A DNA stretch of 64,000 bases from Candidatus Pantoea bathycoeliae (GTDB lineage Bacteria > Pseudomonadota > Gammaproteobacteria > Enterobacterales > Enterobacteriaceae). Both the position numbers and the translations under genes were made by a program. Positions 4,793-30,779 of this stretch are shown here, piece after piece; positions within the stretch are counted from its first letter, which is position 1; each line of letters opens with the position of its first letter. The notes below the pieces were generated by a model, which saw only the letters and a program-made list of their open reading frames with translations, had not been told where the DNA came from and did no database searches. Where the stretch lies: positions 23,771 through 87,770 of the forward strand of contig JAUHTP010000006.1 in the NCBI GenBank assembly GCA_031332935.1, written 5' to 3'.

Positions 4793-4809
4793 CTTTGTTT
4801 CTGTGGGGT

Positions 4810-4954
4810 TGCAATCATTTCTGGACTCTCTAGGGGAACGATGGATTAGCCGGAAGCCCTTTACTGACGCGGCTTACAGCGATTTTAAGAATTCTGGACT
4901 CGTCGCAAAAAAAATGAGCAGAAAATGAGTTTTTTGCACTATATTCTGGACTGG
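4810..4954 (+). repeat. prophage left end with three copies of the putative transposase-binding motif (attL-like)
   Basis: The (A/T)TTCTGGACT motif occurs at 4818-4828, 4891-4901 and 4943-4954, all in the same orientation. The spacing resembles Mu L1 versus L2/L3. Confidence 0.6.
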
Positions 4955-5047
4955 ATTGGTCGTGGTTTGAGTAAGTTTTAAAGCCGTTTAAACAATTTTT
5001 GATTAACGATTTTGTTGCTAAATATAAATAGAGAATTTATATTTTTG

Positions 5048-5599
5048 TTAAACGGCCCTTTTGCGCTCGCTTGCTAAGCTATCTTCTGATGCTACTTCAC
5101 CCTCCTCACTAGCCCCCTTTTTGATTTGGTCATAAAGCCGCATAAGACGCTCTTTTTCTTCCTGAGAGAGTAGAAGTAGGGCGTTATCTACGGAGTCAAT
5201 ACGTGATGATGAAAGCAATATTCCTTTGGCTCCTTCTTTATGGATAAGACGGATTAGTGATTCTATATCCTGACGATCAAGAGACTCATAAATCATTAGC
5301 CATGTATGTTTTAAGTTGTCATGCTCTTGTGTTTTTGGGCTATTTTTAGTTCCATGATATTTATTTAGCCCTGACGCGAGCCACTCAAGACTAACATTCT
5401 CAGCTTCAGCTATCGACAAAACTACCTTTAACGCTGGCTCAGTGCCTTTATGTAAGTAGTTATTTATTGTTGATGCAGGTAGCCCCCAAGCCTTAGCTGC
5501 TGAACGAATACTTCTTCCGCCAATAAGCATTTCAAGACGCTCCCTGAAGCTTTCTTTTCCCTCCCAGCCAAAAGCAAATTTATTTTCTTTTGTACCCAT
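5048..5599 (-). CDS. phage repressor (Mu c / CI-like HTH protein)
   Basis: 183-aa ORF on the opposite strand at the left end, as for Mu c. It has an HTH-like segment (RSIRSAAKAWGLPASTINNYLHKG). The gene is AT-rich relative to the rest of the phage. Confidence 0.7.
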   Translation of the reverse strand: MGTKENKFAFGWEGKESFRERLEMLIGGRSIRSAAKAWGLPASTINNYLHKGTEPALKVVLSIAEAENVSLEWLASGLNKYHGTKNSPKTQEHDNLKHTWLMIYESLDRQDIESLIRLIHKEGAKGILLSSSRIDSVDNALLLLSQEEKERLMRLYDQIKKGASEEGEVASEDSLASERKRAV

Positions 5600-5766
5600 T
5601 TTTCTATTCCATGTAAAATTTTGAATTATAAAGGAAAAACAAGAATGCGCTAAAAAAAGAAAAGAAAGAGCTATTTTGCTTTACTTGGGTTATTTTTAGA
5701 GCAATACTTGTCGATAGGAGTAAGCCCCATGACTTACCCGCATGGTTAACTTTTTAGGGTAATCGA
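5600..5766. promoter_or_regulatory. divergent repressor / early promoter-operator region
   Basis: AT-rich 167-bp gap between the divergent repressor and ner genes, equivalent in position to Mu Pc/Pe and O1-O3. Individual operators are not resolved. Confidence 0.5.
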
Positions 5767-6003
5767 ATGATAGATAGAAATGAAGTGAATCATCGTGACT
5801 GGCACCGGATTGATATCGTGGCCTCCCTGCACAAGAAAGGGATCACCATGCAAGATCTCTCCCGCGGCTCGGGGCTGGCGTCCAGCACGTTAAAAAACGC
5901 GCTATATCGTCCCTATCCCAAAGGTGAACGCATTATCGCTAATGCACTCAATGTGGATCCGGCCAGCATTTGGCCGAGTCGTTATATGAGCAAGGTGTCG
6001 TAA
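5767..6003 (+). CDS. ner: Ner-like early transcriptional regulator
   Basis: 78 aa. The motifs RDWHRIDIVASLHKKG...PKGERIIANAL...PASIWPSRY match the Mu Ner / Nlp (SfsB) family. Confidence 0.88.
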   Translation: MIDRNEVNHRDWHRIDIVASLHKKGITMQDLSRGSGLASSTLKNALYRPYPKGERIIANALNVDPASIWPSRYMSKVS

Positions 6004-6044
6004 TTATGTTTGTTACGGTGAGTGAGTGAGTCGGTTTACCCGGA

Positions 6045-8051
6045 TTGCCTGGCACTTTGCAGGGACTTCGCTGCTCATTGAATAAGCGGACTGCAAATTC
6101 ACCCGATTTAGTCCGTAAGCGTTCGGGCACCAAGGCTTTCGAGTACCACATCGATTGTTTACCAGAGCAAGCTCGCGAGATCATCAAACAGCGGCACTAT
6201 AAATCCTTAATAGCGCAAGCCCCGGCCCTACCGGTTGATGAGTCCGTCAAGCGCAGCACCGCCATCAAGTCGCGTGATGAGCTGGCGATCATGCGCCAAT
6301 GTCCCGCCCTGCTCGAGCGCAAGGTGCAGGCCCTGAACGATCACCAGAAGCAGATCGCCGATGCGCGCATGATGCTGGCACAGGAAGTGATCCGATTGCA
6401 GCAGGCCGGCATGACCCGCATTGCGGCGGTGACCTTTATCGTCGAGGAGTCAAAGGCCGGCACATTGCCCGAGGCCCTGCAACGCGCCGCCACGCTGGCT
6501 AACGCCAAAAAGGGCCGCACCCGGCAAGGGGTGGGCAAAAGCAGCCTGCAGGAATGGGTGAGTCTCTATCTTAGCGCTGAGCGGCCCCAGGAGCGTCTGG
6601 CGATACTGGCGCCCGGTCAGCCGAAGAAGCAGCAGCGTCCCGAAGACATGACGTGGTTTTACGCCCTGTTCTGGCCGCATTATGCCCGGCCCTGTGGCCT
6701 GACGGTGCTGGAAGCCTACCGCGCATTTCAGGCGGACTGGCAGGGCAAATACCATGACCAGCCTGCCATGCTGGCGGCCTTGCCGACCTATGACAAGGTC
6801 AATCGCATGGTCAGGCGGGTGGCACCCAACCGAAGGGTCAAGGGCCGTGTCACCGGTTCAGCGCTCAAGGCGTATCAGGTGTACCAGCAGCGGGATTGGG
6901 CGCAGATGCCGGTGAACGGCTGCTGGATAGCTGACGGCAAGTCGCTGAACATGAAAGTGGCGCATCCGATACACGGGCGGCCCTTTACCCCTGAGCTGAC
7001 GTTGGTGCTCGATGGGCGCACCCGCTATCTGGTGGGCTGGAGCCTGTCTCTGGCGGAAAACGCCATCGCGGTGGCCGATGCGTGGCGTTATGCCATCCAG
7101 CACCACGGCAAGCCACTGTTTGCCTACTCCGATAACGGCGGTGGTGAGACCAACAAGATGCTGGATGCGGATATCACCGGGATTTTCCCCCGGCTGGGCA
7201 TTGAGCATATTACCGGTATCCCCGGTAACCCGCAGGCGCGGGGCATTATCGAGCGGCTTAATGGGGTGCTGCCACGTCGTCTGGCTCTGCGCTTTCAGAC
7301 CTATAACGGGCTAAGCGCTGACCCCAACGGGACGCGGGTGCAGGGGCAAAAACTGCTGAGTCTGTCGAATGCCCTGCGTCAGGGGAAGGAGCTGAACGCG
7401 GTCCAGCAGAAAACGCTGGCGATATTGCCCAGCTGGCGGCAGCTGATAGACGCCATCGAGGAGGAGGTGCAGCACTATAACCACAGCCATGAGCACAGCG
7501 CGCTGCCGAAGGTCAACGGCAAGTCGATGACGCCGGCTGCTTACCGCAAAGCCCTGCTGGCCGAGGAGGGGGATAATATTGAATACCTGACGCCGGGCGA
7601 GTTACGCGAGATGTTTATGCCAGAAGAGAAACGGGTAGCCCAGCGCGGCTGGGTTGAACTGTTGAATAACCAGTATTTTGCCCGGGAGCTGATTGAGGTA
7701 GACCGCCAGACCGTGCGGGTGGCCTACGATATCCATAATCCTAATGAAGTGATTATTCGTCAGATGGACGGGGCCTATCTTTGCACCGCGCTCTGGAATG
7801 GCAATACGGCCTCGCCGGTGCCGGTCTCCAGAGTGGAAAAAGCCCTGGAAGCGCGCGCTAAACGTCGCATTAAACTGGCTGAAAATAAGATTCAGGATGA
7901 GAAAGACGAATTACGTCCGGTGATTGACGCGCCCAGGGAGAACGATTACAGCCTGCTGATACCCAAGGTAGCGGCAGCCGAAAAAGAGAAGGTGTATTTA
8001 TTTGAATCCGAATATGAGCACGATATCAAGCAGGTCGGTAATAACCGCTAA
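6045..8051 (+). CDS. Mu-type DDE transposase (MuA-like); the native N-terminus is interrupted by an in-frame TGA
   Basis: 668-aa ORF from TTG 6045 with an rve/DDE core region (WIADGKSLNMKV..., SDNGGGE...). An in-frame ATG at 6006 gives MFVTVSE, then TGA (6027-6029), then VGLPGLPGT..., where MuA-like proteins have Trp. Confidence 0.85.
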   Translation: MPGTLQGLRCSLNKRTANSPDLVRKRSGTKAFEYHIDCLPEQAREIIKQRHYKSLIAQAPALPVDESVKRSTAIKSRDELAIMRQCPALLERKVQALNDHQKQIADARMMLAQEVIRLQQAGMTRIAAVTFIVEESKAGTLPEALQRAATLANAKKGRTRQGVGKSSLQEWVSLYLSAERPQERLAILAPGQPKKQQRPEDMTWFYALFWPHYARPCGLTVLEAYRAFQADWQGKYHDQPAMLAALPTYDKVNRMVRRVAPNRRVKGRVTGSALKAYQVYQQRDWAQMPVNGCWIADGKSLNMKVAHPIHGRPFTPELTLVLDGRTRYLVGWSLSLAENAIAVADAWRYAIQHHGKPLFAYSDNGGGETNKMLDADITGIFPRLGIEHITGIPGNPQARGIIERLNGVLPRRLALRFQTYNGLSADPNGTRVQGQKLLSLSNALRQGKELNAVQQKTLAILPSWRQLIDAIEEEVQHYNHSHEHSALPKVNGKSMTPAAYRKALLAEEGDNIEYLTPGELREMFMPEEKRVAQRGWVELLNNQYFARELIEVDRQTVRVAYDIHNPNEVIIRQMDGAYLCTALWNGNTASPVPVSRVEKALEARAKRRIKLAENKIQDEKDELRPVIDAPRENDYSLLIPKVAAAEKEKVYLFESEYEHDIKQVGNNR

Positions 8052-8062
8052 GGATATATTGT

Positions 8063-8992
8063 ATGACAACGCGAGAACGTATTTTCCAGCTGATGGAACG
8101 GTCAGGCTACACCCAGCGCAAGGTAGCCGATAAAACCGGATTAAGCAGTGCCACCATTTCACAATATTTAAAGGGGGTTTACAACGGCAATATTGATAAC
8201 GTCGAGGGTACGCTGCGGGATTTTCTTGACCGCGAAACAGAGCGCGCCCACCGGCGGGACATCAAGGTGCATTTTGTGCCGACCCATCTGGCCAGGGTGG
8301 CGCTGGACCTGATTAGTGCCACGCACGACTTCGGCGATATCAGCGTGATATACGGCCCGGCCGGCATGGGAAAAAGCATGGTGCTGAAAGAGTATGTGCG
8401 CGCCAACAGCGCCAATAAAGGCGTCATCCTGATTGAAGCTGACCCCGGCTATACCGCCAAGGTGTTATTGCAGGCGCTGTGCGCCCGGCTGGGTCTGCGG
8501 AAAACCGGCAATATCCACGAGCTGGTCGAGGAGTGCGTACAGGGGCTGCGCGACAAGCACTGGCTGGTCCTGGTTGACGAGGCTGAGCTGCTGCCCTACC
8601 GGGCGCTTGAGGTCCTGCGCCGCATTCACGACCGTTCCGGGGTGGCCATTGTGCTGGCGGGCATGCCGCGTTTGCTGCTCAATCTGAAAGGCTCCCGCGG
8701 GGAATACGCCCAGCTCTATAGCCGGGTGGGCATGGCGTTAGACCTGGAGTCTCGCCGGAAAGACAGTGAAGCCGAGGATTTCAGTGCCATTCTGGGCAGC
8801 CTGTTATCGAACGGCGAGGCCACGGGCGAGCCGCTTGCGCCGGAGATTGCCGCCGCCTTTCGCAAGCATTCACGGGGCAATTATCGCTGCCTGTTTAAAC
8901 TGGCGCGCGGGGTGGCCCGGACAAGCGCTATTGGCAATCAGGGGATGTCCGTGACGTTAATCGACCACTATGCGGAAATGCTAATTCATTGA
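8063..8992 (+). CDS. MuB-like AAA+ transposition target-capture ATPase
   Basis: N-terminal HTH (YTQRKVADKTGLSSATISQYLKG), Walker A GPAGMGKS and Walker B LVLVDEAE. It sits immediately after the transposase. Confidence 0.9.
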   Translation: MTTRERIFQLMERSGYTQRKVADKTGLSSATISQYLKGVYNGNIDNVEGTLRDFLDRETERAHRRDIKVHFVPTHLARVALDLISATHDFGDISVIYGPAGMGKSMVLKEYVRANSANKGVILIEADPGYTAKVLLQALCARLGLRKTGNIHELVEECVQGLRDKHWLVLVDEAELLPYRALEVLRRIHDRSGVAIVLAGMPRLLLNLKGSRGEYAQLYSRVGMALDLESRRKDSEAEDFSAILGSLLSNGEATGEPLAPEIAAAFRKHSRGNYRCLFKLARGVARTSAIGNQGMSVTLIDHYAEMLIH

Positions 8993-9003
8993 AGGAGGAA
9001 AGT

Positions 9004-9294: not shown

Positions 9295-9301
9295 GGCTCT
9301 T

Positions 9302-10136: not shown

Positions 10137-10139
10137 GGA

Positions 10140-10652: not shown

Positions 10653-10687
10653 GGAAAAATCATGAACAGACCCATGAATACAGACCC

Positions 10688-11379
10688 ATGAATAACGTGA
10701 TGCTCGATATCGAAACGCTGGGTAAAAAGCCGGTTGCCCGATAGTGTCGGTGGCGGCGGTGATGTTTGCGCCGGCAACGGGGCGGGTTGGACAAACATTT
10801 TACGAACGTATCGATTATCAGGCCGCTCTCCAATACGGTGAGCCAGAGGAAGGCACTCTGCTGTGGTGGCAAAAACAGAGCGATGAGGCACGTCACGAGG
10901 CCTTTGGCGGTAAAGCACGTCCCGATGTTGTGGCGCGCGCCTTGCGGACGTTTATCGCCAGCCACTGCGCCAAACCTCGCGTACCCTGGGGTAACGGCGC
11001 GGTATTCGATATTGCCCTGCTGCAAAGCTGGTTCGACCGCGTTGACCCGCAAAAAGACGACCAGGGCAATGACCGCTACCCCTGGTCATTCTGGGATGTC
11101 GCCGACCTGCCCACCCTGGTGCGGCTGTCAGGCATTGATGTGCGCGCCATCCTCTACCGCCGGCATCCGACGACGCCGGTGTTGCTGTACGTTTTCGACC
11201 TGAAGGAGAGCGCCCGTCAAGGCGTGGTGGCGATAGAGGGCCTGGTCGCAGGTCAATCCGCCGGCGCTGCCGACAGCAAGGTGGGTTCACTGACGGTTAG
11301 TGCTGTCGATATCGTCAGTGATCTGGACGTATTCAAATATCAGGCAGATGATGAGGTCGTGTGGGGCACGCTGGCATAA
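10688..11379 (+). pseudogene. 3'-5' exonuclease-like protein (DEDD, Rv2179c-like), frameshifted
   Basis: MNNVMLDIETLGKKPVA (ATG 10688) runs into TAG at 10742. The continuation IVSVAAVMFAP...VWGNGAVFD...PWSFWDVADL is in another frame, consistent with loss of one C at 10737-10739. The C-terminal part is of doubtful authenticity. Confidence 0.6.
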
Positions 11380-11556: not shown

Positions 11557-12039
11557 ATGATAGAGGTGACGATCACCGTGCCCGATACGCTGCGTCAGGC
11601 CCTTGAGCGACTGGCGCAGTCCCTGAGCCACCGCCAGCCGTTAATGCGCGCCCTCAGTGAAGAAATGTATGACGCGGTAATGGAGAATTTCGAGCAGGAA
11701 GGCCGCCCGCGCTGGCTGCCCATTGACCGCGTCGGCAAAATCCTGCAGCAGTCGGGGCGGTTGGCCGCCTCCATTGACAGCGACGCCGATAACGACCAGG
11801 CCGTGGTGGGGACCAATGTGGTGTATGCGCGTATTCACCAGCAGGGCGGCACCACCCGGCCTCATGTCATTCGCCCCCGCGATAAAAAGGCGCTGGCCTT
11901 TAACGGCCGGGTGGTAAAACGCGTCAATCACCCCGGCTCAACGATACCGGCGCGCCCCTTTCTCAGTCTGGCCGACCAGGACTATCAGGCCCTGGCGCAC
12001 ACCATCAATGATTACCTCCAGCGCGCGCTGGACGAGTGA
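11557..12039 (+). CDS. virion morphogenesis protein (Mu gpG / gp31-like)
   Basis: 160 aa. The pattern EQEGRPRW...QSGRLAASI...VGTNVVYARIHQQGG is characteristic of the Mu G family. Confidence 0.8.
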   Translation: MIEVTITVPDTLRQALERLAQSLSHRQPLMRALSEEMYDAVMENFEQEGRPRWLPIDRVGKILQQSGRLAASIDSDADNDQAVVGTNVVYARIHQQGGTTRPHVIRPRDKKALAFNGRVVKRVNHPGSTIPARPFLSLADQDYQALAHTINDYLQRALDE

Positions 12040-12299
12040 CGCCCTGTAAAGGCCGTGGCGCGTTTTTGATAGCCAGGCAAGCGGGATGATGCGGGTGAAA
12101 CCGCGTTAAGCGATTCTGAGGCGATTTAAACGGGTTTTAAACGGGGTATCGCCACCCACGTTAGCGGTGTAGGCTGACGGCAGCCCGTTATTGCGATGTT
12201 TTCCCCTCACCATTACCCTCTACACCCCCGTCACGACGAGATCCCCGATGCTCACGTTAGGCTGCTTCCCATGAAAACACTTTCTGGGACCGCCACCGC

Positions 12300-13388
12300 G
12301 TGAAAAACACCGTCCGCCTTGCCGCACTGACCGTGGCGCTGGAGAGCGCCAGCACCCGTGTCCAGCTGTTTCCGGCCGGCACCTTTCGCTCGCAGGATAC
12401 ACGTCCCACCGACGTGGCGCACTGGCGGCTGGAGTCCCCCCAGGCCCAGCGGTTAATTGACGCCGCCCAGGCCCGTCAGACGCCGTACTGCTTTGACTAT
12501 GAGCACCAGGCTATCCATGCCCGGGAGAACGGCCAGCCGGCCCCAGCCGCCGGCTGGTATTCGCAGCTGGAATGGGTCGAGGGCCAGGGGCTGTTTGCAG
12601 TCGATGTCGAATGGACCGAGCGCGCCCGCGCCCTAATTACCGCCGGGGAGTACCGCTTTGTCTCTCCGCTGTTTCGCTACGACAGGCAGGGCAATGTGAC
12701 CTGCCTGGTGAATGCCGCGCTGACCAACGTGCCGGCGCTTGACGGTATGGCGGCGCTGCTGGCGGCGGCGTCACAACAACTCACGGGAGAAAACAACGTG
12801 GATGAACTGTTAGAACAACTGCGCTGGATGCTGAATCTGCCGCTGTCGGCCACGCCTGACGAGGTGACGGTTGAGCTGAAAAAACTCATTGACCGCCTGT
12901 CGGGCGGACAAGGTACAGCGGCGGCCCGCGTCAATCTGCTGTCGCTGCTTACCGAGCAGGATAACCAGATTGCCGCGCTGTCACAGCAGACCACCACACC
13001 ACCCGATCCGGCTGCCTATGCCCCGGTCAGCGTGGTCAATGAGCTGCGCGAGCAGGTGGCGGCACTCGGTCGTCAGCTGAGCGGCAACGAAGTCACTACC
13101 CTGCTGACCGCGGCCCTCAGTGATGGCCGCGTGCTCAAGGGGGCGGATGAGGACTGGGTGCGGCGACTGGGTGAAAAAGACGTGGCGCTGCTGCGTGAGC
13201 ACCTGGCCACCCGTCAGCCGATTGCCGCGCTGTCCGGGCTGCAGACCGGCGGTGTGGCGCCGCAGGGCATCGAGGCGCGTCCATCGTCCCTGGGTGCACT
13301 GGATGCGCCGGCGCTGGCCGCCTGTCACGCCTTTGGCCACAGCGCCGAGACCATTGCCACCATGATGAAAGAGGAGGGGCAGCCATGA
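12300..13388 (+). CDS. head maturation protease / scaffold (Mu gpI / gp32-like)
   Basis: 362 aa from a GTG start. The motifs VQLFPAGTF..., FDYEHQ and EYRFVSPLF, plus an Ala/Gln-rich C-terminal scaffold part, resemble Mu I. Confidence 0.82.
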   Translation: MKNTVRLAALTVALESASTRVQLFPAGTFRSQDTRPTDVAHWRLESPQAQRLIDAAQARQTPYCFDYEHQAIHARENGQPAPAAGWYSQLEWVEGQGLFAVDVEWTERARALITAGEYRFVSPLFRYDRQGNVTCLVNAALTNVPALDGMAALLAAASQQLTGENNVDELLEQLRWMLNLPLSATPDEVTVELKKLIDRLSGGQGTAAARVNLLSLLTEQDNQIAALSQQTTTPPDPAAYAPVSVVNELREQVAALGRQLSGNEVTTLLTAALSDGRVLKGADEDWVRRLGEKDVALLREHLATRQPIAALSGLQTGGVAPQGIEARPSSLGALDAPALAACHAFGHSAETIATMMKEEGQP

Positions 13389-13813
13389 CCGCCACCACGC
13401 AAGACCGCAATACCCCGTACCGGGACGGCGAACTGACGCCCTATCCGGTGGCGGCGAAAGAAACCATCCCGGCCGGCGTTATCGTCTGCCTTAAAGAAGG
13501 CTATGCCGTCAACGGTAAGAGTGCTGAGGACCTGGTGTATGCCGGGCGGTCTGATGAGGCTATCGACAACAGCCAGGGCGGCAACGGCGACCAGCACATT
13601 CTGGTGCGCCGCCACAAGGCGTTTTGTTGGGAGAACGACGGCTCGGTTAAGCAGGCGCATGTCGGCAAGCCGGCCTATGTGGTGGATAACCAGACGGTTT
13701 CTGCTAGCGACGGCGGCACACCCGCGCAGGAAGGCAAGCCGGGGAAACCTGCCAGCCGGTCAGCCGCAGGCACCATCATCATGCTTGACGCGGCGGGCGT
13801 CTGGGTCGAATAA
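13385..13813 (+). CDS. small head-associated protein in the Mu gp33 position
   Basis: 142-aa ORF coupled to gpI by an ATGA overlap and located between the protease and the major head gene. Function is not established. Confidence 0.5.
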   Translation: MTATTQDRNTPYRDGELTPYPVAAKETIPAGVIVCLKEGYAVNGKSAEDLVYAGRSDEAIDNSQGGNGDQHILVRRHKAFCWENDGSVKQAHVGKPAYVVDNQTVSASDGGTPAQEGKPGKPASRSAAGTIIMLDAAGVWVE

Positions 13814-13826
13814 GGAGACACTGCAC

Positions 13827-14729: not shown

Positions 14730-14731
14730 GC

Positions 14732-15158
14732 GTGTACGCCAGCTTTGAGGATATGGTGTTGCGCTTCGGCGAGCGGGAGGTGTGCACCCTGACCGACCGC
14801 GACAACACCGGCGAGATTGACGCCGTGGTACTGGACGGCGGGTTGCAGGCGGCAGTCGATGAGATTAACGGCTATATCGGCGGGCGCTATACCCTGCCGC
14901 TGCCGGTGGTGCCCTCCAACCTGCGCGGCATTGCCTGTGATATCGCCCGCTACCGCCTCACCGGCACCGAGCGGGTCTGCACCGATGAAATCCGTGACCG
15001 CTACCGCGACGCCATCCGCTCTGGAAAACGTCGCCAATGGACGCGTCACGCTGGCCACCACCCAGAACGGTGGCACGCTGCAGGGTAATGCCGGGGCGGT
15101 GTTCTTTTCCGGTCGTCGCATCTGGGGCCGCAACCAGACCGGCGGCGGGGGATTTTAA
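14732..15158 (+). pseudogene. head-tail connector protein (Mu gp36 / DUF1320), frameshifted
   Basis: The N-terminal part MYASFEDMVLRFGEREVCTLTDRDNTGEID...RDRYRDAIR is in one frame. The conserved C-terminus LENVANGRVTL...GRNQTGGGGF is in another, with the shift at about 15015. Confidence 0.75.
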
Positions 15159-15805: not shown

Positions 15806-15856
15806 CGTGATGGCCCGTCAAGGGCTGCGCGACAAACCATCCACCAAGGGGGACGC

Positions 15857-17296: not shown

Positions 17297-17307
17297 AGGG
17301 GGCCTGT

Positions 17308-17676: not shown

Positions 17677-17679
17677 CCC

Positions 17680-18060: not shown

Positions 18061-18176
18061 CCCTGGGCGGATTCCTCGACGCTATCGGGCGTCTGGAAAA
18101 CCCCAAGGGCTGGCGGAAAAACAGGACCATCAAAAGCCTGCGCCGCCGCCCTCCCTCAGCCCAACGGACGTAACCC

Positions 18177-21499: not shown

Positions 21500-22593
21500 C
21501 CCTACCGAGCGCATCGCCCTGCAGATTGGCGGGGTGGCCCATGATGACTGGCTGGACATTGAAGTGGACGCCGACCTGTTGACCCCGGCGGCGGGCTGGG
21601 CGTTCACCGTCGGACTGAGTCAGGCCCGTCTGCCGCCGGAGATCAGGGTGGGCGCACGGGCCGAACTGCGCGCCGGTGACGCGCTTATCATGACCGTTCA
21701 GGTGGATGAACTGCGCCACGAGGTGGCGCGCGGGCAGCATACGCTGAGCGTCTATGGCCGCGATGCGGCCGCGGTGCTGGTTGACTGCTCGGCCCCGCTG
21801 TTCAGTGCTCGCGACATGAGCCTGCAGGAAGTGGTCACCCAGATAGTGCGGCCGCTGGGGGTTACCCACATTCGCCTGCAGGCCACCTCGCCGCTGGCCG
21901 CCCAAAAGGTCAGCATTGACCCCGGCGATACCGCGTGGGGCGCGCTGCGCAAGGCAGCGGAAGCCAGCGGGCTGTGGCCCTGGATAAGTGCCGACGGTAC
22001 CCTGGTGGTAGGTGGCCCGGACTACAGCACCCCGCCGGTCGATACCCTGGTCATGCGGCGCGACGGTCAGGGCAATAACCTGCTGCGCCTGGCGATGAGT
22101 GAGAGTATCAGCAGCCGCTACTCCGAGGTCACGGTACTGGCCCAGAGGCATGGCAGCGCACAGGCTGACGGCCGCCATGACCGCCGCAGCCAGGTGAAAG
22201 ACACAAGCGTTCCACTCTACCGTCCCCTGGTGACGGTGGTGGGCGATACAGGTAGCGATGAGGAGGTGCATTTTCGCGCCCGCAAGCTGATGGCGGACGC
22301 CAGGCTTAACGGCCTGCTTATCACCGCCGTGGTGCGCGGACTGCATACCGCCGCCGGACTGCTGTGGGCTCCGGGCCAGCGGGTACGGATAAAGAGCGAG
22401 CCGCACGGCCTTGACGGCATTTTACCTGATGCACCGACGCTTCAGCGGTGGACGGGGCCAGCCGCTGCAAACCCTGCTGACGCTGCGCGAGGATGGCGTC
22501 TGGTTGCCGGATGCGTTGCCGAACAGCAAGCGCCTGAGCAAGGTTAAGGGCGCGAAAGCCCTATGGCAAAGTTGGGAGCAGATAGATGGCTGA
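21483..22593 (+). pseudogene. baseplate hub protein P (Mu gp44-like), frameshifted near the 3' end
   Basis: 354-aa ORF whose authentic C-terminus (FYLMHRRFSGGRGQPLQTLLTLREDGVW...) lies in the 22411-22593 frame. The shift is at the T-run 22420-22423. Confidence 0.78.
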
Positions 22594-23248
22594 CCTGATA
22601 GCGCACATCGACCAACGTATTCGCCGCGCCCTGGGTGGCCTGCGGCTGGCCTACCGCGCGGTGTTGCGCCGCGTGACGCCCAACGGCGGTGTCCAGGCCG
22701 CCCAGGTCTCGGGGCTCGCCGGGGAGAGTACGCCGGACGTGGAGCTGTTCCAGCACTATGGCCTGACCTCGGTGCCGCCGGCCGGCACCATGGCGGTGGT
22801 GTTGCCCGTGGGCGGCTGCACCCGTCACAGTATTGTGATTGCCACTGAGCACAGCACCTACCGGCTGCAGGGGCTGGCAAACGGCGAGGTGGCGCTCTAC
22901 AGTGACGAAGGCGCGAAAGTCGTCATCCGGCGCGAGAGAATTATCGAAGTGGAGTGCGACGAGTACCGGGTTAAATGCAAGCGCTATCAGGTTGAGGCCG
23001 AAGAGCGCGCCGGCTTTGAGACGCCGATGCTGTCAACCTCACAAGCACTGACGGCCGAGGGGCCTATCAGCGGCCACGGCGGTATGACGATTAACGGCGG
23101 TGACGGCGCGGTGGCGCGCTTTGCGGGGGATATCGAGCACCAGGGCGGCACCCTGCGCAGTGCCGAGGTGGAAATCAACGGCATCCGGCAAAGCAGCCAC
23201 AAGCACTCGACACCGTCCGGGCTGTCCGACGGCCCGGTTAACGGGTAA
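22586..23248 (+). CDS. baseplate spike / assembly protein V (Mu gp45-like)
   Basis: 220 aa. The motifs ...VQAAQVSGLAGES..DVELFQHYGLTSVPP.G... are typical of gpV/gp45. Confidence 0.8.
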   Translation: MADLIAHIDQRIRRALGGLRLAYRAVLRRVTPNGGVQAAQVSGLAGESTPDVELFQHYGLTSVPPAGTMAVVLPVGGCTRHSIVIATEHSTYRLQGLANGEVALYSDEGAKVVIRRERIIEVECDEYRVKCKRYQVEAEERAGFETPMLSTSQALTAEGPISGHGGMTINGGDGAVARFAGDIEHQGGTLRSAEVEINGIRQSSHKHSTPSGLSDGPVNG

Positions 23249-23265
23249 GATAGCGTCGCCGGTCT

Positions 23266-23314
23266 GACGACAATTAAAAGTGCCTTCGCATTGACGTCGC
23301 ATTTTAATTGTCGC
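23266..23314 (+). other. AT-rich 15-16-bp-stem hairpin between gp45 and gp46
   Basis: CGACAATTAAAA(G)TGC at 23268-23283 pairs with GCATTTTAATTGTCG at 23299-23313, with a 15-nt loop and no following T-run. It lies in a 156-nt untranslated gap in an otherwise tightly packed operon. Confidence 0.5.
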
Positions 23315-23404
23315 GAGACAGCCTCGCGCCGTACGCCACCCCGCCAGTTACCCCCTACGCCCGCGTCACTCCTCCCATCCCGTCGCCTGCCTTACCCTGA
23401 CGCC

Positions 23405-23755
23405 ATGGACGCACTGATTGACAGCCTGACCGGCGATTACACCGCCACCCGCACCACTGACCTGCATAACGCAGTCTACCTGCGCTTAATGACGCCGCTT
23501 GGGCAGTATTGGTCTGACCCGCAGCTGGGGTCACGCCTGCATGAGCTGGCGCGGGCCAAGGACTCGGCCACCACCCGGCGGCTGGCACAGCAATATGCCG
23601 AGCAGGCACTGCAACCGCTGCTGACCGATAACCGCGCCCGTCGCATTGACGTCAGTGTCAGCCGTCCGGCACAGGGCGACCTGCAGCTGCATATCGACGT
23701 CGTGGCCGCCAACGGCAGTTTGCAGACCTTTACCCACCCGGTAAAGGTCATTTAA
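23405..23755 (+). CDS. baseplate protein (Mu gp46-like)
   Basis: ATG at 23405. 116 aa (MDALIDSLTGDY...LGQYWSDPQLGSRLHEL...), matching the phage GP46 family in the expected position. Confidence 0.75.
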   Translation: MDALIDSLTGDYTATRTTDLHNAVYLRLMTPLGQYWSDPQLGSRLHELARAKDSATTRRLAQQYAEQALQPLLTDNRARRIDVSVSRPAQGDLQLHIDVVAANGSLQTFTHPVKVI

Positions 23756-23768
23756 ACGGAATATCCAC

Positions 23769-24837
23769 ATGGCGCACAGCACCCCCACCCATACCGAGAT
23801 TGCCGACACGCTCTTGCGCGATATCCGCAACCAGCTGCCGGACGCCGATACCGGCCCCGACAGTGACTATGCGGTGCGCGCGAACGCCATTGCCAGCGCA
23901 CTGCAGGGGCTGTACCAGCACCAGCTGTAGATAGTGCGGCAGATGTTCCCGGACACCGCCGACCATGACTATCTGGTGATGCACGCCCGCACACGCAACC
24001 TGACGCTAAAAGCGGCGACGCCGGCCGGCGGCGAGGTGCGCCTGACCGGCAACCCCGGCGCAAACATTACCGGCCTGCTGCAATTGCGGCCTACCGGAAG
24101 CCGTCAGCGCTACCAGACCACCGCGCCGGGCACGATAGGCGCCACCGGCAGCCTGACATTGCCGGCCCGCGCACTCGACAGCGGCACCCAGGGCAATCTG
24201 GCGGACAACACACCGGGGACGCTGCTGATGGCCCCCGCCGGTGTTGACAGCAACGTCACCATCACCCGCATGGTCGGCGGCAGCGATGCCGAATCCGACG
24301 CCGCCCTGCTGGCACGTCTACTGGAGGTGATACGCCGCCCGCCGGCGGGCGGCAACCAATACGATTACCATCGCTGGGCGGTGTCCCTGCCCGGCGTCAC
24401 CGAAGCCTATGTCTACCCGCTGCGCCGGGGCTACGGCACGGTGGATGTGGTGATAGTCACCCATAACGACCTGCCGTCGCCGGAGACGATTAAGGCGGTG
24501 CAGAGCTACATTGACGAAATGCGCCCGGTCACCGCGAAAGACTGCCTGGTGCTGGCCCCGAGGTGGTGAAAGCCGATATCACGTCCCAGGTCAGCCTGAG
24601 CAACCTGACGCTGGACGCGGCGCGTAAACAGATTACAACCGCCCTCAGTGACTATTTTAACCGCCTGGCCCCCGGCGAGGTGGCGGTCAGAACCCAGCTG
24701 GGGCGCTGATATCGGAAGTGGTCGTCGTAGTGGACTACCAGCTGCTTGCCCCCAGCGCCAATGTGGTGCCGGTGGTGAACAAACAGACCGTGCAGTGGAT
24801 ACGCGCAGGGACTATCACCGTGGAGACCATGCCATGA
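23769..24837 (+). pseudogene. baseplate J-like wedge protein (Mu gp47-like), with one amber codon and two frameshifts
   Basis: An in-frame TAG at 23928-23930 (LYQHQL*IVRQMFPDTA) falls where homologues have Trp. Frameshifts lie at about 24565 (CCGAGG) and about 24705. The C-terminus ...TVQWIRAGTITVETMP can be recovered in shifted frames. Confidence 0.8.
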
Positions 24838-25319
24838 ACGGCCGCGGCTATGCGCAGCTGCTCAGTGCGCTGCTGCCACCGAAAAGCTATGCGCTGACCG
24901 GTGAGCGACTCGGTGTCGAACTGCAGGCCGAAGGGCAAAGCTTGGCAAAGCTGGAAATCCGCGCAGGGGAAGTGGCAGACGGTATCGCGCCCTTCCTCGC
25001 CGTGGGGCTACTGGCGGATTGGGAGCGGATGTTAAGTCTTTCCCCCGACAGCGGCATGACGCTACAGCAGCGTCGTCAGCAGGTACTGGCGCGAATCAAC
25101 GCCACCGGCGGTCTGAGCCGCAAATATTTTATCACTCTCGCCCAATCGCTGGGCTACCGCGTCACCATTGATGAGCCGGAGCCGTTCCGCGCCGGCAGCT
25201 CGGTGGCCGGGGAAAAGCTGCTGACCTTCGGGCAGAACCTGATTGAAGGGCTGTTTAAGGACCTGAAGCCCGCGCACACCCAGGTGGTGTTTAACTACCG
25301 GGAGAAAACGCGGCCATGA
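24834..25319 (+). CDS. tail/baseplate protein (Mu gp48-like, DUF2313)
   Basis: 161 aa (MNGRGYAQLLSALLPP.SY...LADWERML...KPAHTQVVFNY). It may be shorter than typical family members. Confidence 0.68.
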   Translation: MNGRGYAQLLSALLPPKSYALTGERLGVELQAEGQSLAKLEIRAGEVADGIAPFLAVGLLADWERMLSLSPDSGMTLQQRRQQVLARINATGGLSRKYFITLAQSLGYRVTIDEPEPFRAGSSVAGEKLLTFGQNLIEGLFKDLKPAHTQVVFNYREKTRP

Positions 25320-26543
25320 AAGACATTATCGCGCCGATTGACAGCGAAGACGGGCTGTTTCATGACGGCGACCCGGCCGGCGACGTCAGGGGCACCGTGC
25401 TCTACGCCCAGTGGCTGAACGCCATGCAGGGGGCGCTCATCGATACCCAGACCGAGCATAAGCACATTCTGTCGGCCGCCGGGATGCAGCCCAACCCGGC
25501 ACAAAATAGCCAGCTGGCCGAAGCCATCAAGGGGCTGATTGCACAAGCCCAACAAGCCAGTGAAAGCATAGCCTGCTCAAGAAAAATAACGGCGCGGATA
25601 TCCCGGATAAAGCGGCGTTCGTGGCCCATCTGGGGCTAAAAATACCGTTGAACAGGCACAAAACGCGCTGGATAAACGTACCGGTGGCACGGTTAACGGC
25701 CGTCTGCAGATTACCCATTCGGTCAATGTCGGCGACAGCGATTCAGGGCTGATTGCCAATGGCAAAGGCAGCGTCGCGTTGTACGCCGACAATGTCAAAA
25801 CCGGCGAGTGGAATACAGAGCGTCTGCATTGGATACAAGACCTTGAAGTGGGTGGCAACGTTACCACCAATGGTGGGGCAACCTTTGGTAAAGCTGTCTC
25901 CCTATCCGGTGGTGGCCATCTCACGGATATTTTGCATTTTTATGGCAGGGGGCGAAGCGGCAACGAATCACGTACAGGGGAATGCCGCTATTACCCTTAT
26001 CCAGGCAATCCCATGAGCACCGAATTTTACGGTGCCGATGTAGTGGGCAGCCATTATGAACATCGCCTTATTATTAATCGCGGTGGCGGTAATATGAAGT
26101 GGTTCGTTTTTAAGGACGATGGCAGCGCTTACGCCGCGCAGGGTCACTGGCAAAATAACTCTGACCGGCGGATAAAAAGCGATATTGCGAAAATAGACAA
26201 TGGCCTTGAAAAGGTCGAAACGCTGACGGGCTACACGTATGTCCTTGCCGAACATCGTCAGGCGGGTGTGATGGCCGATGAGCTGGAAAAGGTCCTGCCT
26301 GAGGCGGTGGGTAGTTCGGGGGATTACCATGAGAGTGATGGCACCGTTGTCAAGAATGTGAAATCCGTCGCCTACGGCAGTATCACCGCGTTGCTAATTA
26401 AAGCAATAAAAGACTTGTCCGCGAAAGTAAAAGCGCAGCAGGCAGAGATTGACGCGCTGAAAACGTTAATACGTTCAGCGCCGGACCTGGCCAAATCACC
26501 GGCACAGACTCAGAACATGGATAATGACGGGGAGACACCCTAA
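25316..26543 (+). pseudogene. tail fibre 1 with a C-terminal intramolecular-chaperone (peptidase S74-like) domain, two frameshifts
   Basis: The N-terminal adaptor [20 protein letters not shown]... is in one frame. Shifts occur at about 25570 and at the A-run 25638-25642. The C-terminus ...SDRRIKSDIAKIDNGLEKVETLTGYTY...VAYGSITALLIKAIKDL... resembles endosialidase-type chaperone domains. Confidence 0.75.
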
Positions 26544-27356
26544 ATGAAAGAGATTATTTCGCCGGTCGAGACCGCCGATGGGCTGTTCCACGATGGTGAC
26601 CCGTCTATCGGTGCCGAGGGGACGGTGGTGCACGCCAAATGGCTGAATGCCATGCAGGGTGCGATGATTGATACCCAGACGGAGCATAAGAATATTTTGG
26701 CTGAGGTGGGCATGAAGCCCGATGGCAGCCAGTCGGCACAGCTGCTGGCAGCAATTAAGGCCATTGCAACAAGTATTGCTACGGAGACCAGTGCCAGTAT
26801 CTTGCCTGTCGGTGCCCCTATCGCCTGGCCGTCGGATAATATTCCCGCAGGCTATGCCCTGATGCAGGGACAGACGTTTGATAAAAGCAAATATCCGAAA
26901 TTGGCCATGGTTTACCCATCAGGGGTCATTCCTGATATACGTGGCCAGACCATCAAAGGTAAATCTGATGAACGCGCCATACTCAGCAGAGAGGCGGGTG
27001 GCATTCAATCCCATACGCATTCAGCAACGGTGTCCAATACAGATTTAGGGTCAAAAGCCACGGACGTTTTTGATTATGGTAATAAAGGAACGGATGGACA
27101 GGGAGAGCATACCCACACCTGGGGCTCTGCAATGAAAAAGGAAGGTGGTAGCGATCAAAATGTCGGTAGCAATCTAGGTAATACATTTGGAACAACGTCT
27201 GCAGCGGGTCATCACGGACATACTGTTGCCATCGGCCCACATGCACATAATGTTCATATAGGTTCGCATGGACATGCTATTACCATCAATGCAACAGGAA
27301 ACGTGGCAAACACAGTAGATAATATTGCGTTTAATTATATCGTGAGGCTGGCATAA
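26544..27356 (+). CDS. tail fibre 2 (tail-collar domain, His-rich tip)
   Basis: 270 aa. The N-terminus is paralogous to tail fibre 1. The collar motif is [25 protein letters not shown]...YPKLA...IPDIRGQ, and the C-terminal region has repeated HxH motifs. Confidence 0.8.
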
Positions 27357-27952
27357 TGATTTTTGAAAAATCTGATAAACCCCAAGTCATAACTGTTTAC
27401 AATTTACGCGCTGATACAAAAGAATTTATAGGTAAAAGTGATGCTTATATTCTTCCTCACAACGATTTACCAGCCAATTGTGCCCTGCTGCCACCACCAT
27501 AAATCCCTGCGGGACATGTCGCTGTATTTGATGAACGTAATGCAGAATGGTCACTTGCAGAGGAGCACAGAAGAGAAATGGTTTATGATATTAGAAATGG
27601 TGAGCCTGTTCTTATTACGCAACTCGGCAAGATGCCTAAATATACTGTCAATATAGCGCCTTCAGGGCAATACGACAAGTGGAATGGAAGTGCATGGGTG
27701 AAGGATGAGAATGCAGAAAAAACAGCTCTATTAGAAAAAGAAATAGCCAAAAGAAATCATCTCATCGATATGGCATTTACAATGATCAGAGAATGGCATA
27801 GCGAATTACTACTGGGATCTATCTCTTATGAAGATAAAAGCAAGCTTCAGATATGGCTTGCTTATATCAGGAGTTTGAAAGCCGTTGATTTAACGAAATC
27901 ACCAGATATAGCCTGGCCAGCAATGCCTGACAAGAGTAAGGTTCTAGATTGA
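27356..27952 (+). pseudogene. tail fibre assembly protein (Tfa / Mu U-like) with an in-frame TAA
   Basis: ATG at 27356 (TAATG overlap) gives MIFEKSD...YNLRADTKEFIGKSDAYILPHNDLPANCALLPPP, then TAA (27500-27502), then the same frame continues IPAGHVAVFDERNAEW...MVYDIRNGEPV..., matching Tfa family architecture. Confidence 0.75.
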
Positions 27953-27971
27953 GATATTTCATTTGTTAAAT

Positions 27972-28724
27972 TTATTGCTTTATTATATCCATAAATGGGC
28001 GCTTGATTAGCATCCACAGCATTCTTTTTAATTTTATTTTCAATGGTCGCTTTTTATGAAGTTTTTCTTCGGTAAGTTTTTTTAGCTTTAAAGTATTAAT
28101 GTCTGTTTTCTGCTCGTTTATGATTGACGTTTTTGATAATTTGGAATGATAAATAACGGTTGGAAGAGCTGCGTACAAATTAGCGATAGAATATTCACGA
28201 AATATTTTCCATTTATCAGCCTCCATCCATACGGGATAGAGGATATCCAGGGCATTTTGGGCTGCTGATGCGTTGATTACATAACCATGAGAACATGATG
28301 CTTCAATCAAAACATGTAGTTCATATTGCGGCAATATTTTATGCCGAATCTTGGCATCATATTGATGAGCATGAGTAAGCAATGTCACTGATGGAGCATT
28401 TGTTTTTATAAAATGAGACAATTCAGTAAGTACAAGCGGCAGATCGTCAGTTAATTGTACGTCATCTTCTAAAATGAGCGCACAAGGGATATTATGTTCT
28501 AATATCTTTCGATACACCTTTAGGTGGCTCAAGCTACATCCTATTTCGCCTGGTTTACAGGCATAGTTAAGCTCGTGCGTGTGTTGTGTAATTTCCTCAT
28601 TGCTTAATGCACGACCATCAATGGCATCAACCACTTCATAATCAAGATTTAATTTATTAAGTTGAATATCAATAGATTTGCGTCTCTCTAAAGAGTCTTT
28701 TAAGTTAATGACGAAAACTTTCAT
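27972..28724 (-). CDS. glycosyltransferase family 25 (LPS/LOS beta-glycosyltransferase-like) cargo gene
   Basis: 250 aa. The N-terminus MKVFVINLKDSLERRKSI...DAIDGRAL...GEIGCSLSH...ALILEDDV is typical of GT25. The gene is very AT-rich and on the opposite strand to the phage late genes. Confidence 0.78.
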   Translation of the reverse strand: MKVFVINLKDSLERRKSIDIQLNKLNLDYEVVDAIDGRALSNEEITQHTHELNYACKPGEIGCSLSHLKVYRKILEHNIPCALILEDDVQLTDDLPLVLTELSHFIKTNAPSVTLLTHAHQYDAKIRHKILPQYELHVLIEASCSHGYVINASAAQNALDILYPVWMEADKWKIFREYSIANLYAALPTVIYHSKLSKTSIINEQKTDINTLKLKKLTEEKLHKKRPLKIKLKRMLWMLIKRPFMDIIKQ

Positions 28725-28946
28725 CTTACATGATCCATCTTAGTTATTTACATGTATGCCCATTTCATTTGTTTGTGAGAGTCATTTCCTAGAGTACTCC
28801 TGACAAATTGAGCGTTTTGTATGTTTTAAAGCAACTTCCTCTAGCCAGATAGATTGAAGAAGTAAGCAGAAAAATAAATAGCGATATTTATACTCTACGG
28901 CTCTGTTTGTATCTACATATTTCTGCATGAATGATAATTATTTTGA

Positions 28947-28972
28947 CGATCAATAACCGATAATTGATCGGT
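28947..28972. promoter_or_regulatory. overlapping GATC-containing palindromes upstream of the prophage methylase gene
   Basis: CGATCAAT...ATTGATCG at 28947-28970 overlaps ACCGAT-aattg-ATCGGT at 28956-28972. Two GATC sites lie about 35-55 nt upstream of the ATG at 29005. Confidence 0.35.
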
Positions 28973-29004
28973 AAAACTTATATTTATGTACAGGAACTAC
29001 ATTA

Positions 29005-29709
29005 ATGAGTACAACAATCATACCATGGGTGGGAGGAAAGCGGAGGCTGGCTAAACGTATTTTACCGTGCTTTCCTGCGCACAAATGCTACGTTGAACCA
29101 TTCTGTGGAGGAGCTGCGCTATTTTTCAGCAAGGAGCCATCCTCAGTCGAAGTGCTGAACGATATCAACGGGGATTTGATAAACCTTTATCGGGTGGTCA
29201 AACACCATTTGGAGGAATTTGTACGCCAGTTCAAGTGGGCCTTTAGCAGCAGGCAGTTGTTTGATTGGCTGAAAGAAACACCTCCGCAAACGCTGACCGA
29301 TATACAGCGAGCCGCCCGGTTTTACTATCTTCAGCAGCTCACATTTGGTGGCAAAGTGAGTGGGCAGAGCTTTGGTACTTCTGCAGTGCGATCACAGGCG
29401 TTGAACCTCCTAAGGATCGAAGAACAGCTATCACAGGCTCATCTGCGTTTATCTCAAGCAACCATAGAGCATCTTGGGTGGCAGGCTTGTATTGAAAAAT
29501 ACGATAGGCCACACACATTTTTCTACCTTGATCCACCTTACTGGAAGACTCAAGGCTATGGCGTGACGTTTGGCCTGGAGCAATACAGCATCATCGATAG
29601 CCTGGCTCATTCGATATCAGGAAAAATGATTATTTCAGTTAATGATATCCCAGAAATGAGGCAAATCTTCAAAAATCTTCATATCGACGTTGTTGACTTA
29701 AAATACTAA
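29005..29709 (+). CDS. orphan Dam-family (D12 class) N6-adenine DNA methyltransferase, C-terminally truncated by TAA
   Basis: Motifs IPWVGGKRRLA, EPFCGGAA and DPPY. After the TAA at 29707 the same frame continues LGSNCHSKRELIIRNFV to a TGA at 29761-29763, which resembles the usual family C-terminus. Confidence 0.85.
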   Translation: MSTTIIPWVGGKRRLAKRILPCFPAHKCYVEPFCGGAALFFSKEPSSVEVLNDINGDLINLYRVVKHHLEEFVRQFKWAFSSRQLFDWLKETPPQTLTDIQRAARFYYLQQLTFGGKVSGQSFGTSAVRSQALNLLRIEEQLSQAHLRLSQATIEHLGWQACIEKYDRPHTFFYLDPPYWKTQGYGVTFGLEQYSIIDSLAHSISGKMIISVNDIPEMRQIFKNLHIDVVDLKY

Positions 29710-29780
29710 TTGGGCAGCAACTGCCATAGTAAGCGTGAGTTGATCATCCGCAATTTCGTCTGATTTCCTTTTTGAAAACA

Positions 29781-29840
29781 ATTCTGGACTGTCCAAAATA
29801 GCCATTTTTTAGGGTTTATGGGAGTCCAGAATTGATTGCA
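29781..29840 (+). repeat. prophage right end with transposase-binding motif copies (attR-like)
   Basis: The terminal copy GAGTCCAGAAT (29823-29833) is inverted relative to the left end. A further ATTCTGGACTG copy at 29781-29791 is in the opposite orientation, recalling Mu R3. Confidence 0.6.
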
Positions 29841-30779
29841 TCGCTACACGTAGCTAGGCGCTAAAGATGACGGTGGGGCTGTACCGTGACCTGGCGGTTT
29901 GCGTTGCAGAGGGCAGCGCGGAAACTTGGCACGATCCTGAGCTGTATTGTCTGGAGGCCTCGGTCGGTGCGCCCCCGGACAGGCCCGGCCCGCTGGGGCA
30001 AAACTGGGGGCTACCGCCGATGGACCCGCACGTGATGCGCGCGCGGCTACCAGCCTTTTATCGACATGCTGCGCGCCGCGACCACGTTATGGCGCTGCTG
30101 CGATTGTGGTGGGTGCCGAAAGGGGAGACCGCTGACAAAGGGGCTTACGTCAGCTATCCGGTGCATGATCTGCTGGGGATTCTGGCGCTGGAGAGCCAGC
30201 GCCACCGCTGTATGGTCATCGGCGAGGATCTCGGAACCGTGCCGCCAGAGATTGTCGGGCTGCTGCGCGCCAGCGGCGTTTTTTCCAGGAAAGTGATGTG
30301 GTTTGAGCAGCAGCGCGACGGCAGCTATCGTCAGCAAGGCGACTACCCGCGCCAGTAAATTGCGAGCGCCAGCACGCACGATCTGCCGACGCTTAGCGGT
30401 TTCTGGAACGCCGATGATTTCGCGCTGGGGGAGAAGCTCAAACTTTATCTTGGCAAAGAGGTGTTGCAGTCGCTGCATGAGCAGCGTGCGAAGCAGAAGC
30501 AGGCGCTGCTGGATGCGCTGCATCAGGCAGGTGCGATGCCTGCGCGTAGCGCGCGGCAGGCCGATAAGCTGGAAATGACGCCTGCGCTTAATCTGGCGAT
30601 GCATAAGTTTCTTGCAGCAACCGGCAGTTGGTATGACAACGCCGGTCAACGTGCCCGGCACCGTCGATCAATATCCTAACTGGCGGCGCAAACTGGCGCA
30701 GCCGCTAGAGACGATCTTTGCGGATAAAGCGGTGGTAAAACTGCTGAAAGCGGTCAGTCAGACGCGGAAAGGCGAGTAG
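29841..30779 (+). pseudogene. malQ: 4-alpha-glucanotransferase (amylomaltase), 5'-truncated at the prophage end and frameshifted
   Basis: The sequence starts at about residue 380 of E. coli MalQ (MTVGLYRDLAV.VAEG.AETW...GPLGQNWGLPPMDP). It has an internal scrambled segment, at least two frameshifts (about 30355 and about 30660), and the C-terminus ...YPNWRRKLAQPLETIFAD in a third frame. Confidence 0.85.

Follow-up and report, generated by a model that had tools for sequence, protein, structure and literature searches.

Adjacent deletions that start exactly at the end of a transposon are a classical product of intramolecular replicative transposition, as in bacteriophage Mu, Tn3 and IS1. A locus with this appearance lies in Candidatus Pantoea bathycoeliae, within a 64,000-nucleotide (nt) stretch of contig JAUHTP010000006.1 (assembly GCA_031332935.1, forward strand, positions 23,771 to 87,770; hereafter the window, whose own numbering is used throughout), where a defective Mu-like prophage stands between glpR and the 3' part of malQ. 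An earlier note, made from the sequence alone, had held that this was not a simple insertion, and we agree, since the two flanks are non-contiguous yet collinear in the ancestor, carry no duplication, and meet phage termini that are intact to the last base. The note had gone on to propose a Mu-type adjacent deletion, or recombination between two phage copies, with the loss of malT, malP and some 380 codons from the start of malQ. Its mechanism survives as the best reading, in that we give an adjacent deletion by the transposase, or else recombination between neighbouring phage copies, a probability of about 60%; the size and content of the loss do not survive, as no more than 1,190 bp is missing.

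The host is a Pantoea near P. septica, P. latae and P. piersonii (97-98% amino-acid identity in GlpR, about 87% identity in DNA). The Escherichia coli gene order that the earlier note cited was confirmed (glpR-rtcR-rtcBA-malT-malPQ-gntT-nfuA); however, in the five closest genomes glpR is followed directly by an intact malQ, whose 690-residue product scores as MalQ (NF008274, 1,081 bits), so malT and malP were not lost at this junction. The same arrangement is found in L302, a prophage-free 71-kb JGI metagenome contig that we found with sequence specific to the left flank of the window and that has 94% identity to both flanks. With slashes marking the positions at which the window breaks, L302 reads ...TTTTTCTTTGTTTC/CTGTCGATTTT..., then 110 bp, then an intact malQ of 690 codons that contains ...TGCTGGGCA/CGTAGCCAGG at codon 360. 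Aligning the flanks to the closest prophage-free sequence, a check that the earlier note had suggested, thus showed the prophage to stand in place of exactly 1,190 bp of L302, namely the 110 bp upstream of malQ and codons 1-360, and the distance between the same two positions in the five closest genomes is 1,190-1,207 bp. The note was therefore right that malQ is truncated at the right phage end, although the missing part is not the first ~380 codons: the junction falls at codon 360.0 of the intact L302 gene. Both flanks keep the ancestral orientation (glpR +, 3' part of malQ +, nfuA -), and collinear flanks with 1,190 bp gone between them indicate a deletion, not an inversion or translocation.

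The left junction is informative about the ancestor. Exactly at this junction the window has the clade-specific motif TTCTTTGTTTC, found 110 bp upstream of malQ; it is conserved in the five closest genomes and in L302, where it is followed by CTGTCGATTTT, and its presence places the ancestor of the window in the group with glpR next to malQ. Among 80 glpR loci (L002-L081), Mixta has glpR-malT-malP-malQ and most Pantoea have glpR-malP-malQ, with glpR directly adjoining malQ in the septica clade, in L302 and in a few others. Beside glpR there is thus a nested loss of maltose genes across the Erwiniaceae, with the window keeping a malQ remnant only. To judge from these gene orders, the losses were stepwise (malT, then malP, then malQ), with malT and malP gone from the locus before the phage event and independently of it. 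The earlier note had named a relative with glpR naturally adjoining the internal malQ position as the observation that would speak against its reading; glpR does adjoin malQ in these relatives, at the start of the gene and not at the internal position. In the window the remnant has five lesions, namely a CAG-to-TAG change at 29855-29857, three deletions (2, 28 and 32 bp) and a further stop codon (30356-30358), which indicate that the deletion event is old. It begins CGT AGC TAG where the relatives have CGC or CGT AGC CAG, a C-to-T stop three codons past the junction, because of which an open reading frame (ORF) finder starts the remnant at ATG 29867.

The ends of the element could be set from two independent sides. 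Homology to L302 and the five related genomes breaks off at 4801 and picks up again at 29849. Eight related left ends (L092/L295, L096, L066, L111, L296, L297, L298 and L357) all start TGTGGGG and diverge directly 5' of the TGT, while 14 related right ends (including L084, L253/L289, L254, L256, L258, L264 and L274) all terminate ...GCCGCGCTACA and then diverge, the window terminating ...TCGCTACA at 29848. All of these left and right ends have unrelated flanks, which shows insertion at many unrelated sites. Since the related ends and the host breakpoints coincide at 4802 and 29848, we take these as the limits of the element and, on this comparison, TGT...ACA as its termini; this is the alternative definition of the earlier note, whose primary ends (4810/29840) were 8 bp off.

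Its 19-nt inverted repeats were recovered at the same coordinates, 4810-4828 (TGCAATCATTTCTGGACTC) and 29822-29840, with 18/19 positions complementary, and a repeat finder gave a 27-nt pair at 4802-4828 and 29822-29848 (85% complementary). The core ATTCTGGACT occurs at 4891, 4943 and 29781 on the plus strand and at 29823 on the minus strand, with a one-mismatch copy at 4818; allowing at most one mismatch there are nine matches in place of 2.2 expected, and none of 100 shuffles reached nine. The additional copies at 4891, 4943 and 29781, which had been likened to the L1-L3 and R1-R3 sites of Mu, are therefore real, and in an alignment of five left ends the L1, L2 and L3 positions are kept in the four related ones. 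Further one-mismatch copies at 61427 and 61587 were considered as a second phage end and rejected as chance matches within the tsgA coding sequence. A search of viral contigs with exact 18-mers from the ends gave nine matches, eight of which fell by chance in coding sequence of no relation to the phage, leaving L084 as the one true relative.

With TG...CA termini and several sub-terminal sites at both ends, the element has a Mu-type end architecture, except that its right end is one direct site short. Two direct transposase sites 22 nt apart precede the terminus ...GCGCTACA in 14/14 related right ends; the window has a single hybrid site (AGTCCAGAATTGATTGCA) fused to TCGCTACA, so that its right end is exactly 22 nt shorter than all of the others, with the terminal octamer kept. 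From this structure, the element is probably transposition-impaired now.

No target-site duplication flanks the element under either definition of its ends, as the earlier note had reported. The flanking 5-mers GTTTC (4797-4801) and CGTAG (29849-29853) match at 0/5 positions and the 4-mers TTTC and CGTA at 0/4, so that redefining the ends, which the note had foreseen might reveal identical 5-bp flanks, leaves them without a match. Four pattern scans, which gave the 14 right and eight left ends, yielded just two relatives with both ends on one contig. In E1 (L096 and L253, contig 2636415529_000010) the element reads ...GCGTCTCTG/TGT...ACA/TCTGGGGC with the identical flanking 4-mer TCTG, and in E2 (L111 and L274, contig 2558860275_000002) it reads ...CTCTGGGAG/TGT...ACA/GGAGTCTG with the identical 4-mer GGAG. 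The fifth base is mismatched in each, and the chance of identical 4-mers in both is about (1/256)^2. Removing 4 bp (or 1 or 7) from E2 joins natural-looking frames into a 191-residue ORF, which removing 5 bp does not; no Pfam family was found for this ORF, so we infer rather than observe the restored frame. The right flank of E1 is too short for the same comparison, and metagenomes gave no match to an empty site for E2. The duplication of this clade is thus apparently 4 bp, as judged from the flanks, and not the canonical 5 bp of Mu. Since the relatives carry duplications, the phage family does make them, and the copy in the window has either lost its own or never had one.

These observations can be joined in a series of events. 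The phage would first have inserted in one of two places, between glpR and malQ (just past the glpR terminator) or at codon 360 of malQ. In a second, transposase-catalysed event one of its ends would then have become linked to the other place, which lies on the same chromosome at a distance of 1,190 bp; in its simplest form this would be an intramolecular replicative transposition of the Shapiro type giving an adjacent deletion, and an equivalent route would be a short-range transposition and then homologous recombination between the two copies in direct repeat. The 1,190 bp, which hold the promoter region of malQ and its first 360 codons, would have been carried off on a circle together with the second phage copy, and lost. 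The prophage that was retained would have one old and one new flank, no matching duplication, exact termini and collinear flanks, and prophage and malQ remnant would have decayed afterwards. That the transposase made the second junction, the order of the events, and which junction is the original one are what we infer here; the proposal also takes the transposase of the element to be the catalyst, and a reciprocal circle or second copy to have been formed.

An adjacent deletion is favoured because the termini are exact and the flanks collinear but 1,190 bp apart, with no duplication in a family that makes one. The flanks are non-contiguous and collinear in the ancestral arrangement represented by L302 and the five related genomes, and the deletion ends at the terminal nucleotide of an intact phage end, the right breakpoint being ambiguous by 2 nt (a shared CA). 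Cis-immunity outside the Mu ends is partial and not absolute (PMC2837660), so a target about 1 kb from the phage end would be disfavoured but usable. Further points in favour are the apparently intact MuA and MuB, the conserved L1-L3 sites, a phage family that is mobile and multi-copy, and the recurrence of both junctions at 100% identity in separate Logan contigs.

Several points weigh against this reading. Replicative Mu-type transposition is normally lethal, and a survivor needs an abortive or single event. We found no phage-related DNA or protein outside 4802-29848 in the 64-kb window, and so no second copy there, and neither a reciprocal product nor an intermediate strain was found. The right end is without one of the two direct sites present in all 14 relatives, and if this loss preceded the deletion the element may have been a poor substrate for transposition; the deletion event is not datable relative to the decay of the prophage. 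At the right junction (GGGCA/CGTAG) the terminal CA of the phage is shared with the host sequence that precedes the breakpoint in malQ, and this 2-nt ambiguity fits microhomology-mediated joining. The genome is, moreover, deletion-prone (2-, 28- and 32-bp, 2.4-kb and ~9-kb deletions lie nearby), and deletions made without a transposase are common.

The last two points lead to the possibility that a normal insertion was followed by a spontaneous deletion in which the transposase had no part, whose endpoint fell at the phage terminus by chance and which took away one copy of the duplication with 1.19 kb of host DNA. The small deletions are in the malQ remnant, the ~9 kb is missing from the prophage and the 2.4 kb from between a sucrose-phosphorylase-like and an S1-domain gene, and the 22 nt gone from the right end is of the same kind; the CA would be the microhomology at the right breakpoint. 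An endpoint within 0-2 nt of the terminus by chance has, however, a prior of the order of 1 in 1,000, and microhomology at the left junction had to be rejected, as the sole candidate nearby, TGT, predicts TTTCC/TGT where the window has TTTC/TGT. On balance we regard such a deletion as very unlikely. An aberrant integration in one step, in which the ends were joined 1,190 bp apart or a strand-transfer intermediate was mis-repaired, would make arrival and loss a single event and leave the locus in an identical state, with a deletion between collinear flanks, exact termini and no duplication, and with no need for a cell to survive replicative transposition. In a priA mutant, 5/15 Mu insertions had rearranged junctions (PMC3325207), a laboratory precedent found only in that mutant, which is deficient in repair; the structures of the junctions were for the most part left unresolved there. 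Against this reading, the two target cuts are normally held by the transpososome at a fixed stagger. E1 and E2 show normal short duplications, and literature searches found no natural example, so we hold this to be unlikely, and it is doubtful to a greater degree still that a one-step capture of targets 1,190 bp apart went together with a clade-wide 4-bp stagger as a non-canonical form of target capture.

The version in the earlier note, in which a Mu-type deletion removed rtc, malT, malP and ~380 codons of malQ, 8-12 kb in the E. coli order, agrees with the order in E. coli, in Mixta and, as far as malP is concerned, in most Pantoea. It can hardly be maintained in the face of L302, which refutes it, of the five closest genomes, and of TTCTTTGTTTC at the left junction. 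Equally hard to maintain is a simple insertion whose duplication is hidden or decayed or whose ends were set wrongly, or an assembly chimera of two prophage copies. Repeated prophages do mislead assemblers, and the ends first proposed for this element were indeed misplaced; but the ends are now set by 22 independent relatives together with the empty site, the flanks still do not match, and insertion into a pre-existing deletion would still have created a duplication. Two separate Logan contigs of run SRR25145046 span one junction each at 100% identity (L001, window 2913-13314, and L251, window 26420-30211), and flanks that lie 1,190 bp apart and collinear in the ancestor are not what a chimera of distant copies is expected to give.

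Table 1. Features of the window at and around the prophage; coordinates are those of the window.
Feature	Coordinates	Strand	Basis
glpR (DeoR-family repressor), intact, left host flank	3945..4703	+	Pfam DeoRC, HTH_DeoR; 97-98% amino-acid identity to Pantoea septica-clade GlpR
glpR intrinsic terminator (stem-loop 4766-4788 and T-run)	4766..4801	+	Terminator scan; last host bases ...TTTTTCTTTGTTTC end at 4801
Mu-like transposable prophage, defective	4802..29848	+	25,047 bp; gene content, related ends, host-homology breakpoints
Left terminal transposase-binding site L1 (TGTGGGGTTGCAATCATTTCTGGACT), predicted	4802..4827	+	Conserved in related left ends
Sub-terminal repeats L2 (core 4891-4900) and L3 (core 4943-4952)	4891..4952	+	Exact ATTCTGGACT matches
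Repressor (c-like helix-turn-helix (HTH) protein)	5048..5599	-	Pfam HTH_3, Phage_CI_repr
Ner-like small HTH gene	5767..6003	+	PF13693 HTH_35; called in the identical Logan contig L001 (2855-3091, offset +2912)
MuA-type DDE transposase, apparently intact, 668-residue ORF	6045..8051	+	Pfam Mu-transpos_C 4e-15; gene caller starts at 6291
MuB-like AAA+ target-DNA activator, apparently intact	8063..8992	+	Pfam AAA_22, TniB; 47% to the ATPase after the transposase in MK388859
Internal deletion junction: 3' end of Rv2179c-like exonuclease gene joined to sequence just upstream of G	11142..11152	+	
Late head and tail genes, degraded: G, I, decoration, T, J (truncated), gp37, sheath, tube, tape measure, N, P, gp45-48, fibres, tfa	11557..27952	+	Pfam, tblastn
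Low-GC cargo: family-25 glycosyltransferase (27972-28724, -) and D12 N6-adenine DNA methyltransferase (29005-29709, +)	27972..29709		Pfam
Right end: inverted inner site (core 29781-29790) and single terminal site AGTCCAGAATTGATTGCATCGCTACA (29823-29848)	29781..29848	-	Alignment with 7 relatives
malQ remnant (codons 361-690), pseudogene	29849..30779	+	Pfam Glyco_hydro_77; alignment to E. coli MalQ begins at residue 367
nfuA, intact, right host flank, collinear with relatives	30823..31398	-	Pfam NifU, Fe-S_biosyn; 97% identical to L002 NfuA

The gene content of the element (Table 1) bears out its identification as Mu-like. Besides the transposase and the MuB-like ATPase it encodes a DUF3164 protein and homologs of the Mu-type head and tail genes G, I, T, gp37, sheath, tube, N, P and gp45-48, some of them broken; it has neither terminase, portal and F nor any lysis gene, and no integrase family was detected by Pfam among its ORFs. 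Within the transposase ORF Mu-transpos_C scored above its curated cut-off and rve and HTH_Tnp_Mu_1 below theirs. A tblastn search with this protein against phage records gave 243 matches, of which the best ones listed were to Mu-like phages or to annotated transposases, the identity to Klebsiella phage ST405-OXA48phi1.1 being 54%; copies with 93-94% identity occur in IMG genome 2597489865.

The late genes are decayed as well as incomplete. Only residues 48-407 of a 712-residue reference tape measure protein align by tblastn, and in searches with reference phage proteins N, P and gp47 were each found split across frames. About 9 kb, with Mor, lysis, terminase, portal and F, is missing at the internal junction, on either side of which sibling copies continue: L295 matches the window up to 11152 and then has the full exonuclease gene and a Mor-like gene, and L093 has a portal fragment and F and then matches from 11142. 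Compared with ST405-OXA48phi1.1, the element is without GemA, lysis, terminase, portal, F and gp35. MuA, MuB and L1-L3 look intact from their sequences, and the element as a whole appears long dead, having no lysis, terminase, portal or F genes, frameshifted tail genes, and a right end short by one 22-nt site.

GC content falls to 41.7% over 26544-29848, compared with 57% overall. Besides the cargo, this low-GC block (26544-29709) holds tail-fibre and assembly genes, and the segments 25316-25492 and 26544-26720 are direct repeats with 74% identity that form the N-terminal parts of two tail-fibre genes. A possible role of the family-25 glycosyltransferase is modification of lipopolysaccharide, and the D12 methyltransferase occupies what we take to be the position where Mu carries mom. 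The methylase was tried as a handle on related right ends and abandoned, as it is a widely shared cargo and almost all of the 80 loci it led to were unrelated phages. The exact MuB and methylase proteins were each found in only one public contig, and the element had no DNA-level match among the deposited phages of the phage collection.

Its relatives show a family that is mobile and multi-copy, with insertions in at least eight different contexts. IMG genome 2597489865 has three related copies (93-95% identical) with different internal deletions and insertion sequence (IS) insertions of their own, so each copy decayed separately, and the idea that a packaging-deficient derivative was itself spreading was thereby ruled out. 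A repeat of ~1.06 kb (98-99% identical) interrupts L091 (1629-3746), L092/L295 (4395-5454 and 8053-9108) and L093 (450-1505), and one of the three siblings is also split by an IS21-type element (with IstB and a Mu-transpos_C_2 protein); this genome looks IS-rich, with several decaying copies of the same phage. In Pantoea sp. BAV 3049 (NZ_WHOY01000031.1; L066 from 11106) a related prophage lies ~350 bp downstream of that strain's own glpR. Its left end is ~77% identical over 200 nt and has the same orientation with a different flank, which makes it an independent insertion in the same neighbourhood.

Decay in the window is not confined to the phage. Between 33441 and 35142 there is a second, phage-independent case in which ~2.4 kb of the relatives (L002 16546-18943) is gone, leaving residues 287-545 of a 563-residue sucrose-phosphorylase-like protein and residues 1-327, over three frames, of a 779-residue S1-domain protein, whose size and position suggest a Tex/YhgF-like gene. 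The sequence points to a host genome undergoing gene loss.

The proposed mechanism is a classical one; the phage itself is new and belongs to the Mu-like group as a distant member. What the locus offers is a worked case rather than a new mechanism: a clean natural example, resolved to the base, of a transposable prophage remodelling its neighbourhood, with the empty site, both junctions and the termini of the family documented, and with the scale and the ends corrected. It also shows that an E. coli gene order is not transferable to another genus, as an apparent loss of 8-12 kb became 1,190 bp with the right comparators. Two small leads are the apparent 4-bp duplication in a Mu-like clade and a right end that has lost one transposase site. 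Should integration in one step with a 4-bp stagger prove true after all, the locus would preserve a natural case of a Mu-family transposase capturing its target in a non-canonical way.

Among known systems the element is best compared with Mu itself, with which it shares a DDE MuA-type transposase and MuB-type ATPase, a left-end immunity region that is c/ner-like, TG...CA termini, three sub-terminal sites on the left and both direct and inverted ones on the right, and the genes G, I, T, gp37, sheath and gp45-48. It differs in having a distant MuA (Mu is absent among the 15 matches listed, which range from 54% down to 31% identity), in the 4-bp and not 5-bp identical flanks of its complete relatives, in carrying a GT25 glycosyltransferase and a Dam-type methylase as cargo and no G-segment, gin or mom, and in its length of 25 kb without any lysis and packaging genes. 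The closest deposited genome is that of Klebsiella phage ST405-OXA48phi1.1 (MK388859, 35.2 kb), one of the 33-35 kb Mu-like Enterobacterales prophages, which has the same gene order (amino-acid identities of 54% for MuA, 47% for MuB, 55% for T, 50% for sheath and 54% for gp47) but keeps GemA, lysis, terminase, portal, F, gp35, a 712-residue tape measure and unbroken N, P and gp47. With Mu-promoted adjacent deletions the locus shares a flank that has moved to a nearby collinear site, with no duplication. The adjacent deletions of IS1, the Tn3 family and Tn5-type elements likewise start exactly at the element end, with the element kept and the duplication lost; in this case, however, the element is a phage genome of 25 kb, and the event stands as a fossil in a decaying natural genome instead of being the product of laboratory selection. 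In priA mutants, Mu insertions that were mis-repaired (Jang, Sandler & Harshey 2012, PMC3325207) also have Mu-host junctions that depart from the normal duplication, but they arose in a repair-deficient laboratory host and many have truncated or duplicated Mu ends, whereas both ends in the window are complete.

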